In this document: piece after piece, positions 1 to 2,936 of the stretch
Layout: every line of letters begins with the position of its first letter
How positions within the stretch are numbered: position 1 is the first letter of the stretch
NCBI GenBank assembly: GCA_964291625.2
Contig: OZ220090.1
Span: 928,001 to 992,000 of the forward strand
Length of the DNA: 64,000 bases
Reading direction: 5' to 3'
From: Candidatus Latescibacterota bacterium
GTDB taxonomy: Bacteria; Latescibacterota; UBA2968; UBA8231
Position numbers and translations under genes: made by a program
The notes under the pieces: generated by a model
What the model saw: the letters and a program-made list of their open reading frames with translations, nothing else
Databases searched by the model: none
What the model was told of the DNA's origin: nothing

Positions 1-2936
1 GGGAAGGCCTTGGCGGTGAACGCATACGGGGGACGATCCGTCTCCAGGATGGCGCACATGTGGAGATTGGACAAGGCCGTGTCCAGGGCCGCGCCCGGAA
101 CCTCCAGGCCGGCGCGCCGCAAGCCCTCTTCCAGCCCCTCCCTCGACAGGCCGAGGCCGCCGGGCGTCTCGGCCATGACCAGGGTCACGGTGCGTTCGAG
201 GGGATCGCCCTGGCCCCAGATGGTCTCGATGAACTCGGCCTGGAACTCGCCCGAATCGAGCACGCTCTGGCAGTGGGACGGGGTGACCCGGCGGCTCTCC
301 TCGCGGGCGATGCGGCGCACGAGCCGGTCGCACAGATACTGGATGATGCGCGGATGGCAGGAGGAGACGCCGAGAATCCGTCCCACGAGCTCCTCGGCAT
401 CGACGAGCTCTATATCCATCAGCTCCATGGGCTCGATGACGATGCGCCGGGCACTGGGCGGATCGAGATAGCGCAGGGGCAGGGCGTCGCAGAAGTTGAG
501 CATGGGCGAGGCCAGGTCGTGCAGCTGGCCGTGGAGAATGCGCTCGCCGCTGAACACGAAGCGGCACTTGCCCTCCTCCGACAGGGCCCGGAAGGTCTTG
601 AAGAGCAGCTCGTCGTGGTGGGTGTCGAAGCGCAGCAGGGCGTCCATCTCGTCCATGAGGAAGACGATCGTCTTCTCCTCTTCCTCGTAGAGCTGGGTGA
701 TCAGCTGGTGGAAGCGCTCGGGCTCCTCCCCCGCCACCTGCAGGCCCCAGTTGTTGCGCACGTGGGCGAAGAAGGCCTGGTAGTTGGTCACCGCCTGATA
801 GTTGGCGTAGAAGGGCCGGTAGTCGCTGGCGGGAAGCATGAAGGTGCGATACACCTTCTGCAGCACCGATGTCTTGCCGATGCGGCGCCCCCCGACGATG
901 CCGATGTTCTTGGTGTGGAGCGTCTGGACGATGGTCTTGATCTCCTCTTCGCGGCCGAAGAAGATCGTGTCCGGCACGGGTCCCGTCGTGATATAGGGAG
1001 AGACGACGATGAGATCGACCTGTTGCAGCACCGGGCGCATGAAGACACGGTGGCGGAAGGGGTCGGTGGAAGCGGCGATTCTCCTGATCTCGGTCTGACC
1101 CAGTACTATGAAGTCGTATCCCAGGCCCTGGGCCTGGGTCCTGATGGTGAAGCGGGCCTCCAGCTCGTTCAGGTACACCACCACCAGGGCAAAGCGGCTG
1201 ATGAGCCCGAAGGACTCCATCAAGGTCCGCAGGTGGGACAGGTCCTCCGCCTCGAAGACCGGGCGCTGCAGGAAGACCAGGGGAAAGGGTGACGGGATCT
1301 TGGCGCCCCGCAGCGATGTGGTGTGGACGACAGTGCCCCAGAAGGGCCCTTCCCGCCGGCCCACTTGCTCGTCCACGGTGAAGCCCAGGGTCCTGCACAG
1401 CAGGTCGGCCCCCCGCCCCGCGGCCTCGGCAAACTCCCGGAGTGCGGCCGGACTGCCGGCGTTCAGCAGGTCGAGCCCCTGTCTCCAATGCTCGTCGAAC
1501 TGCCGCAGGACCTGGCGCTGCGCCGGGGCCAGGACGATGCGCTCGCCGTTGACCCCCAGGTCGAACTCCTCGTGCTCGGCGACGTAGCGCCGTCCGGCGT
1601 AGGAGCGGTGGATGCGGGGAATGGCCTCCAGGTGAAACCCGCCCACCGATCTCCCATCCTCGTGCGGGCCGGTCCCCTGCTCGAGATCATCGTTCCACAC
1701 GCCGAGCAGCCCTTCCTCGATCTGCCGGGCCCAGTTGGGGTAGCTGCGCCGCCGGTCCTCCTGCACCTGCCGCTGGCGCCGGATGCGGTACCCCAGACCG
1801 GCGGCGATCAGCAGGGCGACCCCGCCGGCCAGCGCGATCCCGGACCAGGGCCGCTGGCCGGGCGGCGGCTTCAACCGGGCCCGGATCGGCTCCTGGCGGT
1901 TGGCGCCATCCACGGTGAGCTCCGTCTCCCAGAGGGCCTCTCCCTTGCTGACCCGCAGGGTGTGGGGGCCCGTCTCCAGGAAGACCTCCACCGGCGTCGT
2001 GAGATCGACCAGGCGGTCGTCGATCCACACCTGGGCGTCGAGGGAGTCGGAATCGATGGCCAGGGTCGCTCCGGCCAGGGGCAGGCTGCGGAAGAGGCGA
2101 TTGGCCGGTTGCAGACGGGGCCGTGCAGTCTCTCGGAGCCGGCCCAACTCGTGCAGGGTCTCGTACACCTCGCCCAGCCTCACCACGTGGTCGGCCTCCC
2201 GCAGCTGGTCGGCCAGCGGCACGGTGAACACGCCTTCCCTGATCGCCTCGGCCGGACCGCCGGCGCTGAGCACCGCGGCGCCGGCCGGCAGGTAGTCGGT
2301 GCGGGTGATGCCGTCCAGGAAACCGGCATCCGACGTCGCCTCCAGGGGGCTGGTCACGCCCTTGTCCGCCCGCCCGTCGCCGGTGTACCCGGCGTCGATG
2401 GCGACGATCGTGTAGCGAGCCCGCAATCTGCGCAGCAGGCGCCCCAGTTCGTCGTCGCGCCAGTAGCTGTCCGCCTGCCCACGGATGGCATCGGCCAACA
2501 ACAGGCACTCGTCGAGCCGGTCCGGTTCCATATCCGGATAGAGGTCGTCCCTCGTGCGCGTGCCGCGGCCCGAGTAGTAGAAGAAGACCAGGTCCTCCTC
2601 CCCCACCTGGCCGGACAGACGGGCGAAGAGCGCCTGCAGGGAGGCCCGGGTGGCCGCGGAATCGACCAGGCTGCGGATGCGTCCGGGCTCAAACGCCGCG
2701 CCCTCGATCAGGGCCTGCCGCACGAGCTCGACATCCCGCGAGGCTCGCTCCAGGGGTTGGAAGCCCGAGTCGGGCCCATAGGCCCCGACGCCGACCAGAA
2801 TCGCCCAGCGCTGGCGGAAGGACAGGTGCTCGTACTGGCCGCTGGCCGCGGCATCGGCCGGCGGCAGGGCCAGGATCAACGTCAGCACGACTGTCAGGCG
2901 GCACCAGGGGCGTCGGAGGGCAGGGCCCTGGCTCAT
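1..2936 (-). CDS. Membrane-anchored multidomain protein: signal peptide, inactive caspase-like (peptidase C14) domain, PEGA-like domain, TM helix, STAND-like P-loop ATPase (3' end runs off the window)
   Basis: Manual translation of the minus strand from ATG 2936 (GGAG upstream) is open to the window edge. Motifs: RWAILVGVGAY, DLVFFYYSGRG, TIVAIDAGY (caspase fold), AQVWIDD..TTPVEVFLETGPHTLRV (PEGA), GIALAGGVALLIAAGLGY-RIRR (TM), FFGREEEI, GIVGGRRIGKTS (Walker A), IVFLMDEMD (Walker B), SCHPRIIQYLC. Confidence 0.85.
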   Translation of the reverse strand, partial: MSQGPALRRPWCRLTVVLTLILALPPADAAASGQYEHLSFRQRWAILVGVGAYGPDSGFQPLERASRDVELVRQALIEGAAFEPGRIRSLVDSAATRASLQALFARLSGQVGEEDLVFFYYSGRGTRTRDDLYPDMEPDRLDECLLLADAIRGQADSYWRDDELGRLLRRLRARYTIVAIDAGYTGDGRADKGVTSPLEATSDAGFLDGITRTDYLPAGAAVLSAGGPAEAIREGVFTVPLADQLREADHVVRLGEVYETLHELGRLRETARPRLQPANRLFRSLPLAGATLAIDSDSLDAQVWIDDRLVDLTTPVEVFLETGPHTLRVSKGEALWETELTVDGANRQEPIRARLKPPPGQRPWSGIALAGGVALLIAAGLGYRIRRQRQVQEDRRRSYPNWARQIEEGLLGVWNDDLEQGTGPHEDGRSVGGFHLEAIPRIHRSYAGRRYVAEHEEFDLGVNGERIVLAPAQRQVLRQFDEHWRQGLDLLNAGSPAALREFAEAAGRGADLLCRTLGFTVDEQVGRREGPFWGTVVHTTSLRGAKIPSPFPLVFLQRPVFEAEDLSHLRTLMESFGLISRFALVVVYLNELEARFTIRTQAQGLGYDFIVLGQTEIRRIAASTDPFRHRVFMRPVLQQVDLIVVSPYITTGPVPDTIFFGREEEIKTIVQTLHTKNIGIVGGRRIGKTSVLQKVYRTFMLPASDYRPFYANYQAVTNYQAFFAHVRNNWGLQVAGEEPERFHQLITQLYEEEEKTIVFLMDEMDALLRFDTHHDELLFKTFRALSEEGKCRFVFSGERILHGQLHDLASPMLNFCDALPLRYLDPPSARRIVIEPMELMDIELVDAEELVGRILGVSSCHPRIIQYLCDRLVRRIAREESRRVTPSHCQSVLDSGEFQAEFIETIWGQGDPLERTVTLVMAETPGGLGLSREGLEEGLRRAGLEVPGAALDTALSNLHMCAILETDRPPYAFTAKAF

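Follow-up and report, generated by a model that had tools for sequence, protein, structure and literature searches.

A Predicted Transmembrane Receptor with a Pseudo-Caspase Ectodomain and a STAND-like ATPase, Encoded beside a Sigma-54 Activator in Candidatus Latescibacterota

Receptor Gene and Its Domain Organization

The window analysed here is the whole stretch of 64,000 nucleotides at positions 928,001 to 992,000 of contig OZ220090.1 (assembly GCA_964291625.2, Candidatus Latescibacterota bacterium), and the gene in question, referred to below as the receptor gene, lies at its very beginning. A single long open frame on the minus strand runs from window position 2936 past window position 1; in the genome, its stop codon was found 114 nt (38 codons) beyond the window start, and the full protein comprises 1016 residues. 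An original prediction, made from the window alone, had ascribed the absence of this gene from the list of open reading frames to a stop outside the window, and the extended genome frame bears this out. The ATG start codon at 2936 is kept with its leader in two orthologous loci, while the alternative in-frame ATG at 2990 is not conserved.

The protein is composed of a putative signal peptide, a caspase p20-like domain, a PEGA-like sandwich, one predicted transmembrane helix and a C-terminal module formed by a nuclease-fold domain, a P-loop ATPase, a helical lid and a winged helix (Table 1). The receptor is apparently the sensing member of a widespread two-gene signalling pair, whose other member is encoded directly downstream.

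Misassembly as the source of the gene fusion was ruled out, because the identical fused architecture recurs in three genomes of the genus, in the relative P0008 (51% identity) and in the relatives P0013–P0015 (about 38% identity in the module). The possibility that the two halves are separate genes elsewhere, which the original prediction had named as an objection to itself, thus failed: they are fused in the orthologues of the three genomes, in P0008, P0013 and P0014 (Pfam) and in P0015 (alignment), the latter being counted from the clade alignment together with the Pfam tally of three caspase-bearing members.

Pseudo-Caspase and PEGA Ectodomain

The match to Peptidase_C14 (PF00656) covers residues 43–197 and lies above the curated threshold of 21.4 bits. 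The catalytic His is replaced by Arg124 (window 2565–2567), as seen from the alignment of 'FFHYSGHGTR' of metacaspase-9 to 'FFYYSGRGTR', and the catalytic Cys by Gly183 (window 2388–2390). The latter position was placed by a relay, since the protein's own alignment to solved structures stops short of it: 'ISDSCHSGG' of metacaspase-4 was aligned to 'IVDSCYSGA' of P0013, and this, through an ungapped block, to 'AIDAGYTGD' of the receptor. The double replacement of SGHG by SGRG and of DxC by DAG, predicted originally, was thereby recovered from structure and clade alignments.

Conservation of these replacements, another point raised originally, was followed in an alignment of the caspase clade (n = 8: the receptor, the paralogue encoded in its operon, P0008, which is 51% identical over the whole length, P0009, P0070, P0013, P0014 and P0015). 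The motif S-G-R-G is present in all eight members, while the Cys position is variable (C in three, S in three, G in two). In other caspase homologues of the same phylum, all nine sequences that cover the His position keep His, and all eight that cover the Cys position keep Cys; 15 genome loci were examined, of which nine aligned over the His position and six gave no alignment. The acidic pocket is kept in the clade, the position of Asp68 being occupied by D in seven members and by E in one, and that of Asp181 by D in all eight. In TbMC2, the pocket residues for basic-residue specificity are Asp95 and Asp211 (PMC6426788; this and the other PMC papers are cited here from partial text). No p10-like region was reported by the Pfam scan of the receptor.

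In pseudo-orthocaspases, which are p20 proteins of prokaryotes, the His-Cys dyad is substituted (Klemencic et al. 2019, PMC6426788), and the receptor has their set of features, namely, p20 without p10, a substituted dyad and an acidic pocket. Judged by its residues, with Arg124 and Gly183 at the catalytic positions, the caspase-fold domain cannot be a Cys/His protease. Because Arg is fixed in 8 of 8 members and the pocket Asp residues are kept across the clade, the pattern of conservation marks the dead caspase as an old, selected pseudo-protease rather than a product of recent decay.

The PEGA (PF08308) match covers residues 291–332 and lies just below its cut-off; the region aligned to it reaches 35.0 bits in the operon paralogue and 36.6 bits in P0014. 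The order of caspase, PEGA, further sandwich, transmembrane helix and module is shared by P0013 and P0014. A homologue search with the ectodomain, restricted to shorter proteins, gave one weak match.

Signal Peptide and Membrane Topology

Only two peaks above 1.6 were found in the Kyte–Doolittle profile with 19-residue windows, at residues 14–32 and 363–385. The former is signal-peptide-like, with two Arg residues before it and AAA|S after it; the latter is followed directly by RIRRQR. A signal peptide and one transmembrane helix with RIRRQR dividing the two halves of the protein had been predicted originally; both segments are evident from hydropathy and are seen again in relatives as distant as about 38% identity.

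If the leader is cleaved and a single helix stops transfer, the caspase and PEGA domains would lie outside and the ATPase inside, as the hydropathy profile and the A-x-A site suggest and as the function of an ATPase requires. The earlier reading of an exported dead caspase coupled to a cytoplasmic ATPase is likewise supported by these features. We infer that the ectodomain is the sensor or a dimerising part.

Nuclease-Fold Domain and ATPase of the Cytoplasmic Module

Residues 430–645 were folded alone, since Foldseek with the model of the whole cytoplasmic part (residues 386–1016) listed only ATPases. The AlphaFold2 (AF2) model of this region has a predicted local distance difference test score (pLDDT) of 89.1 and a predicted template modelling score (pTM) of 0.83. 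Comparison with 48,161 chains by VIA-align, an aligner independent of Foldseek, placed the FokI cleavage domain at the top (Z 10.1, 153 aligned residues, root mean square deviation 3.4), followed by N.BspD6I (Z 9.5) and the small subunit of R.BspD6I (Z 8.7), all three above the Z of 7–8 that is a common best score for unmatched models. AF1548, LlaBIII, HindIII, AspBHI, MspJI, NucC, Can1/Can2, Card1 and the N-terminal nuclease of Avs4 appear in lower rows, and nucleases of the PD-(D/E)xK fold make up most of the list down to Z 5. Foldseek with this domain gave weak matches, the best being the restriction enzyme EcoT38I (E 0.028), and a search of the ESM Atlas with residues 430–645 returned one unnamed cluster at 0.84, below the meaningful level.

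The strand expected to bear (D/E)xK comprises residues 551–556 (FPLVFL) and is free of acidic and basic residues in 30 of 30 sequences. At the possible position of the first Asp, the receptor has His538, and D or E is present in 20 of the 30 family members; both positions were placed by secondary structure rather than by residue-level superposition. According to the model, the domain has a PD-(D/E)xK fold, with its alpha-beta-beta-beta-alpha-beta core, but without the catalytic motif, and an active nuclease in this part of the protein was ruled out by the missing motif. The original prediction had described an alpha/beta region of about 250 residues here and had asked whether it might be a dead PD-(D/E)xK fold. 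Its position before the ATPase and the suspected fold both stand, but the region is really a helical linker followed by a restriction-endonuclease-fold domain.

In the ATPase, AAA_22 matches residues 678–804 above its cut-off of 27 bits; nSTAND1, nSTAND6, ATPase_2 and AAA_16 match at about 657–855, all under cut-off. For nSTAND1 (PF20703), the receptor scores 21.1 bits against a cut-off of 27.1, while P0013 and P0016 reach 29.8 and 41.4 bits. Walker A (GGRRIGKTS, residues 682–690) and Walker B (FLMDEMD, residues 759–765) are intact, as had been predicted, and the K, D and E of these motifs vary little or not at all among 44 relatives; the H-P of the lid (alignment positions H476 and P477) is invariant among them. 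The model of residues 386–1016, built from a 44-sequence alignment (mean pLDDT 90.8, pTM 0.89), covers the P-loop core, helical lid and winged helix. Its C-terminal 380 residues resemble ORC1/Cdc6 (2qby, E 5e-9, Foldseek), and the best TM-scores for the ATPase part were obtained with PAB2304 (2qen, 0.71) and SSO1545 (2fna, 0.65).

The hallmarks of signal transduction ATPases with numerous domains (STAND) are Walker A and B, a helical lid with a G/H-P motif and then a winged helix. All of them are present in the receptor. The protein ends about 30 residues past the winged helix, as do the other members of the family, and no C-terminal repeat or sensor region follows.

Distribution of the Module Family

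The HMMER search of 1.84 billion representatives gave 7051 matches at E ≤ 1e-3 and 515 at E ≤ 1e-30. Nearly all of the best 150 matches span residues of about 435–996 of the receptor and form the C-terminal part of proteins that are 335 to 1716 residues long. Among the best 44 relatives, Pfam annotation gave AAA_22 in 41, nSTAND1 in 25 (E ≤ 1e-5), Sortilin-Vps10/BNR in 19, NACHT with HEAT repeats in four, Peptidase_C14 in three and Pkinase in one. By its sequences, the module defines a family with interchangeable N-terminal parts, of which sortilin/BNR propellers are the commonest. A transmembrane-like 19-mer lies within 130 residues upstream of the module in 49 of the 73 representatives that have a whole module and at least 60 residues upstream of it.

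The survey of genome contigs found 217 stretches encoding a relative, of which the best 80 were used. By record titles, these belong mostly to metagenome-assembled genomes (MAGs) of Chloroflexota/Anaerolineae, with a small number under the labels Burkholderiales, UBP9, Eremiobacterota, Acidobacteriota or Microgenomates. Within the window's phylum, the search of 168 genomes yielded full-length orthologues in three, all of them within its genus (3 of 9 genomes).

Some relatives have other arrangements. In P0016, two tandem ATPase modules occur in one protein, and P0010 contains a Ser/Thr kinase and then two transmembrane segments, together with the module. The best segments of the orthologous loci L014 and L015 are each 93% identical to the module of the window, and their records are labelled Candidatus Latescibacterota and Gemmatimonadaceae, respectively; one of the two labels is probably wrong.

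AAA_35 Partner of the Receptor

The gene directly 3' of the receptor encodes a protein of 676 to 701 residues with an AAA_35 domain (48.9 bits), which also bears Sigma54_activat (PF00158, 235 bits), an AAA lid and a Fis-type helix-turn-helix (HTH); the score for HTH_8, 16.5 bits, is below the cut-off of 22. The 'GAYTGA' loop is present in the translation.

Partners were sought in the 80 loci with the operon proteins first and then with profiles. In 49 of the 80 loci, the module gene is immediately followed by an AAA_35 homologue in the same orientation; these are 49 of the 69 loci with at least 2 kb of downstream DNA, and the homologue starts anywhere from 93 nt before the stop of the module gene to 340 nt beyond it. 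Of the 31 partnerless loci, 11 have under 1.4 kb of sequence on that side. This answers the question of co-occurring genes raised in the original prediction: it is an AAA_35 ATPase gene that adjoins.

The outputs of the partners differ. Among 36 of them, AAA_35 was annotated in 32, Pkinase in nine, CHAT in four and SpoIIE in two, and both of the SpoIIE (PP2C) partners examined also carry GAF. Single cases are TIR_2, a CAP12-type TIR, the effector-associated domains EAD2 and EAD7, and Sigma54_activat, the last being that of the genome under study; the sigma-54 part was found only in two orthologous loci among the 80.

Cross-matches between the ATPase of the module and that of the AAA_35 partner show 22–24% identity, and the motif order GxxxxGKT, hhhhDE, GHP is common to both. 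On this sequence evidence, the two ATPases are distant paralogues. Complex prediction for module residues 430–1016 with the AAA_35 domain gave a score of 0.38, the best of three controls having 0.00; at least 70% of contacts are common to the runs, and the pLDDT of the partner is at least 77. The mark for such scores was reached by 58 of 80 solved complexes and by 2 of 110 mismatched pairs, yet only 7 of those 80 solved complexes, along with both mismatches, reached it with a score of 0.60 or below. The predicted complex weakly supports binding of the module to its AAA_35 partner.

Promoter, Palindrome and Operon

A sigma-54 (−24/−12) promoter-like site precedes the receptor gene (Table 1). 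In the window, four sigma-54-like sites with one mismatch were found, against 1.03 expected. Orthologous loci in two other genomes have GGCAC-N5-TTGCT equally far from the start codon, with neighbouring bases that differ. The palindrome upstream, a candidate enhancer, is retained with 0–1 changes in the two orthologous loci, and its flanks diverge. In the 5.9-Mb genome, there are eight such palindromes and 25 strict sigma-54-like sites, and the pairing of palindrome and then site is found only here; as the pattern was defined from the receptor locus, its presence at this locus is circular, and the uniqueness alone is informative. The gene rpoN is present in the genome (209 bits). With its AAA+ domain, the sub-cut-off HTH, rpoN and the −24/−12 site, the neighbouring activator qualifies as a sigma-54 enhancer-binding protein.

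The operon is represented by genes for the receptor, the activator, a secreted pseudo-caspase-PEGA paralogue, a PorV-like outer-membrane protein, assigned from weak matches, and a BNR/sortilin protein of 1227 residues, in this order; in relatives, the genes are tightly packed or overlapping. The BNR protein (L001:5653–9336, minus strand, outside the window) contains immunoglobulin-like (choice-of-anchor D) domains and a FlgD_ig/PorZ-like C-terminus of the type IX secretion system (T9SS) type, and lies above the NCBIfam cut-off for 'F510_1955 family glycosylhydrolase' (265 vs 175 bits). For the BNR ectodomains of four distant receptors of the family, the BNR gene of the operon is the best match in the genome, at 213–293 bits vs at most 84 elsewhere, and its propeller is 34–38% identical to these ectodomains. 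Since this gene is the top match, the usual ectodomain of the family is present in the operon as a separate secreted protein.

The gene of the pseudo-caspase-PEGA paralogue (L001:11554–12061, C2 ~924,600, outside the window) consists, in this assembly, of a 423-residue frame and a second frame, and corresponds to one gene of 631 residues in L015. An extra A after L094:7117 is present in the contigs of all four runs, the probable source sample included. Because of this extra A in all four runs and the intact gene of L015, the frameshift looks like an assembly error rather than a pseudogene. Related sequence (90–99% likeness) was found in runs of several studies that are labelled sponge metagenome, one of them an RNA library.

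Upstream of the receptor gene, an intergenic region of 314 nt is followed by a divergent gene (window 3250–4917, plus strand) of the X-Pro dipeptidyl-peptidase (S15) family and then, judging by translation, by a hydantoinase-type gene; both seem unrelated to the operon. A second sigma-54-like site, CGGCACAATTCTTGCA (L001:5334–5349, minus strand, outside the window), lies about 300 nt past the stop of the BNR gene and upstream of a same-strand cluster with DUF4956, HlyD-like, OEP/TolC-like, VTC-domain and CotH-kinase genes; the genome-wide scan found no palindrome of the operon type at this site. With two mismatches allowed, the sigma-54 pattern gives three matches in L001 vs 4.72 expected, which is no excess. 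Three one-mismatch sigma-54-like sites lie within about 500 bp at window positions 52828–53341 (plus strand).

Table 1. Features of the receptor gene and its upstream region; positions are those of the window.
Feature	Position	Strand	Basis
Start codon and putative Sec-type signal peptide, residues 1–31 (RR..., core LTVVLTLILAL, AAA|S)	2844..2936	-	Hydropathy peak 14–32; GGAG 8 nt 5' of ATG; hydrophobic leaders in 7/8 caspase clade members
Caspase p20-like pseudo-protease, residues 43–270	2127..2810	-	Pfam PF00656, 32.7 bits; alignments to metacaspase-9/-4 and within the clade
PEGA-like beta-sandwich, residues 289–355	1872..2072	-	PF08308, 20.0 bits (cut-off 20.8); higher in paralogue and P0014
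Predicted single transmembrane helix, residues 363–385, then RIRRQRQVQEDRRR	1782..1850	-	Highest hydropathy peak of the protein, 1.82
Conserved juxtamembrane module, residues 435–645: three helices, then PD-(D/E)xK-fold domain (residues ~474–645) without catalytic motif	1002..1634	-	AF2 model, VIA-align
P-loop ATPase core, residues 655–820; Walker A 867–893, Walker B 642–662, conserved Arg783	477..974	-	Pfam AAA_22, 31.4 bits
Helical lid with H-P ('SSCHPRIIQ', 339–365) and winged helix, residues 821–978	1..476	-	Secondary structure of the model; last 38 codons and stop outside the window
Sigma-54 (−24/−12) promoter-like site GGGCACGCTTGTTGCT	3005..3020	-	68 nt 5' of start codon; one mismatch to TGGCAC-N5-TTGCW
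Palindrome TGTCCAGAAAATCGGACA, candidate enhancer (upstream activating sequence) for the sigma-54 activator	3102..3119	-	99 nt upstream of the sigma-54-like site
Degenerate second palindrome copy	~3062–3079	-	Nearer the promoter

Proposed Mechanism and Alternative Explanations

The best explanation, held with modest confidence and built on sequence and model evidence, is that the receptor would act as an outside-in membrane sensor ATPase, activating its AAA_35 partner by induced oligomerisation and here feeding the sigma-54 activator. An extracytoplasmic cue would engage the pseudo-caspase/PEGA ectodomain; as the acidic P1 pocket of metacaspases is kept, this part may bind a basic peptide or a wall component, or may pair with the secreted paralogue. 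Through the transmembrane helix, the cue would reach the dead-nuclease/ATPase module and cause a switch of nucleotide state and oligomerisation, and the activated module would then template the oligomerisation of the partner's AAA_35 domain, clustering the output domains. In this genome, the sigma-54 AAA+ ring would be assembled and the operon itself switched on, giving positive autoregulation of an envelope operon. Protein kinases, CHAT, TIR and ring-forming sigma-54 AAA+ domains are commonly activated by self-association. Since this holds for all of the outputs seen, induced proximity is the most economical common mechanism, and it would equally explain the kinase, CHAT, TIR and PP2C outputs elsewhere.

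A number of observations weigh against this explanation. The module is not preceded by a transmembrane-like segment in 24 of the 73 representatives, and an AAA_35 partner is missing from 20 of the 69 loci with enough downstream sequence (2 kb or more); therefore, the module also works in the cytoplasm and without this partner. The full-length protein is present in only three of the nine genomes of the genus and is therefore dispensable. By calibration, a complex prediction passing at such a score would more often be wrong than right unless the complex was likely beforehand, and the palindrome pattern was itself derived from the receptor locus. Contigs of the RNA library cover parts of the operon with 90–99% likeness and flat depth, and are indistinguishable from DNA carry-over. 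Canonical STAND proteins have an N-terminal effector and a C-terminal sensor, and nothing follows the winged helix in the receptor. Finally, effector-type outputs among the partners (CHAT, TIR, EADs) point to a conflict system, rather than housekeeping signalling, as the role of the family as a whole.

Taken further, this last point leads to an immune or conflict system resembling nucleotide-binding leucine-rich repeat (NLR) proteins, in which the domain exposed at the envelope would detect attack on the cell surface by adsorbing phages, contact-dependent toxins or non-kin cells, and the partner would respond with an effector; a transcription activator of an envelope response would have taken the place of that effector in this lineage, so that the wiring would be equal and the purpose different. 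Such a purpose is rather unlikely for the receptor, even though CHAT, TIR and EAD2/EAD7 outputs are hallmarks of the conflict systems of multicellular bacteria (PMC7159879, PMC8195603), the ATPase is nearest to nSTAND1 of Pfam, matched in 25 of 44 relatives, the family is concentrated in MAGs of filamentous Chloroflexota (by record titles), and its distribution within the genus is patchy. Kinases (9 of 36), PP2C with GAF (two) and the sigma-54 activator are ordinary signalling outputs, the products of the operon are envelope proteins rather than toxins, and no mobile-element or defence-island genes were seen beside the operon. Among the PADLOC models of known and candidate defence systems, none matched either ATPase beyond about 20 bits.

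Sensing might instead be intracellular: the dead nuclease fold and winged helix would form a membrane-tethered receptor for nucleic acids, e.g., entering DNA, with the ectodomain as a mere anchor, or the signal would pass inside-out and cluster the ectodomain. In STAND proteins, the N-terminal slot is taken by the effector or anchor, the ATPase part is closest in fold to the DNA-binding ORC1/Cdc6, and the relatives without a transmembrane-like segment (24 of 73) agree with this; in addition, inactive domains were proposed as nucleic-acid receptors in such systems (PMC8195603), and PEGA is termed peptidoglycan-associating (PMC7159879). This explanation is nevertheless improbable. The fixed Arg and acidic pocket over deep divergence argue for a specific binding site rather than an anchor, the commonest ectodomains are large ligand-binding propellers (19 of 44), and no conserved basic patch was found in the columns of the nuclease-fold domain that were examined, only R444 and a few partly basic columns. 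It is far less credible still that the caspase domain remains a protease by means of other residues and that the receptor is an ATPase-regulated envelope protease. The fold and the acidic P1 pocket are retained, as is Cys in three of eight relatives, but Arg stands in place of the general base His in all eight, the nucleophile position of the receptor is occupied by Gly, which has no side chain, and the drift of this position among C, S and G is unlike that of a catalytic residue under selection.

The explanation by an outside-in sensor ATPase can be extended, tentatively and with more doubt than confidence, to an undescribed, widespread class of transmembrane STAND receptors with swappable ectodomains, a dead-nuclease adaptor and a hetero-oligomerising second STAND ATPase that bears the effector. 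Rewiring of the pair in this Gemmatimonadaceae lineage would have replaced cell-death-type effectors by a sigma-54 activator and produced a self-inducing envelope operon, and the fixed Arg would plug or gate the protein's own acidic P1 pocket.

Comparison with Known Systems

The individual pieces of the receptor and its partner are of already known kinds, namely, a pseudo-orthocaspase, PEGA, a nuclease fold, a STAND/ORC-like ATPase and an enhancer-binding protein. No published description was found of a caspase-PEGA-transmembrane-ATPase protein in the partial texts consulted, and the source-data tables of the eLife surveys (PMC7159879, PMC8195603) may list such proteins. The same texts gave no description of a pair of this module and AAA_35 with interchangeable outputs, for which the text search with 'AAA_35' was swamped by unrelated strings, nor of a dead nuclease as a constant adaptor or a STAND-type input on a sigma-54 activator. 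The available text of 10.1101/2023.09.22.558884, PMC13581612 and PMC6426788 was covered as well, and no such architecture or pair was found there.

The receptor shares with pseudo-orthocaspases p20 without p10, the replacement of both catalytic residues and the two retained pocket Asp residues, and some pseudo-orthocaspases are exported too, the cyanobacterial YS forms having a signal resembling that of twin-arginine translocation (PMC6426788). The dyads named there are YS, YN, YA, FS, QC, HA, HG and YG, from which Arg-Gly/Ser/Cys of the receptor's clade differs. Unlike the receptor, none of the pseudo-orthocaspases in the available text of that paper is described with PEGA, a transmembrane helix or an ATPase, and none is reported there for RCII-bearing Gemmatimonadetes.

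Bacterial STAND/NLR-like proteins sense intracellular ligands by C-terminal repeats (PMC7159879, PMC8195603). Walker A/B, the lid with G/H-P, the winged helix and modular fusions are shared between the receptor and the nSTAND1/NLR-like conflict NTPases (Kaur et al. 2020, 2021; PMC7159879, PMC8195603), as is the repertoire of outputs (caspase/CHAT, TIR, kinase, EADs), and the nSTAND2 system is a precedent for a two-gene STAND pair. In contrast to these systems, the variable domain of the receptor is exported, a transmembrane helix lies between it and the ATPase, C-terminal repeats are absent, a dead nuclease fold is constant in the family and the effector is borne by a second, AAA_35 ATPase; moreover, the nSTAND1 score of the receptor is under the cut-off. 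A family with the variable domain outside and the effector on a paired ATPase would extend the logic of NLR proteins to surface sensing, and would offer a testable model for the reuse of a dead protease and a dead nuclease as signalling parts.

The two-gene EACC1 system (Kaur et al. 2020, PMC7159879) has in common with the receptor membrane proximity, an N-terminal caspase and variable domains including STAND NTPases. Its caspase is a constant, presumably active, processing domain, whereas that of the receptor is dead and exported. The best NCBIfam match of the caspase domain is caspase_w_EACC1 (NF047832), at 37.6 bits vs a cut-off of 140, and no EACC1 gene lies 5' of the caspase gene; an EACC1 system was ruled out on these grounds.

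In the structure of the ATPase, lid and winged helix, the best likeness is to archaeal ATPases of PF01637 (PAB2304, SSO1545) and ORC1/Cdc6. The receptor falls below the cut-offs of these families (ATPase_2, 21.6 vs 33.2 bits; TIGR02928, 30 vs 181 bits), and these proteins, in contrast to it, are soluble and have neither the nuclease-fold part nor the membrane part.

The activator shares with enhancer-binding proteins of the NtrC, PspF, NorR and RtcR type Sigma54_activat, the AAA lid, the Fis-type HTH, the −24/−12 promoter and the upstream palindrome. Its regulatory N-terminal domain is an AAA_35 STAND-like ATPase rather than a receiver, GAF, PAS, V4R or CARF domain as in those proteins, and the AAA_35 relatives elsewhere bear quite different outputs; it would supply sigma-54 activators with a novel type of input domain. 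With two genes, one promoter and one palindrome, the system is compact, and variants with kinase, phosphatase, protease and TIR outputs exist in nature; therefore, activation by induced proximity is directly testable in a laboratory host.

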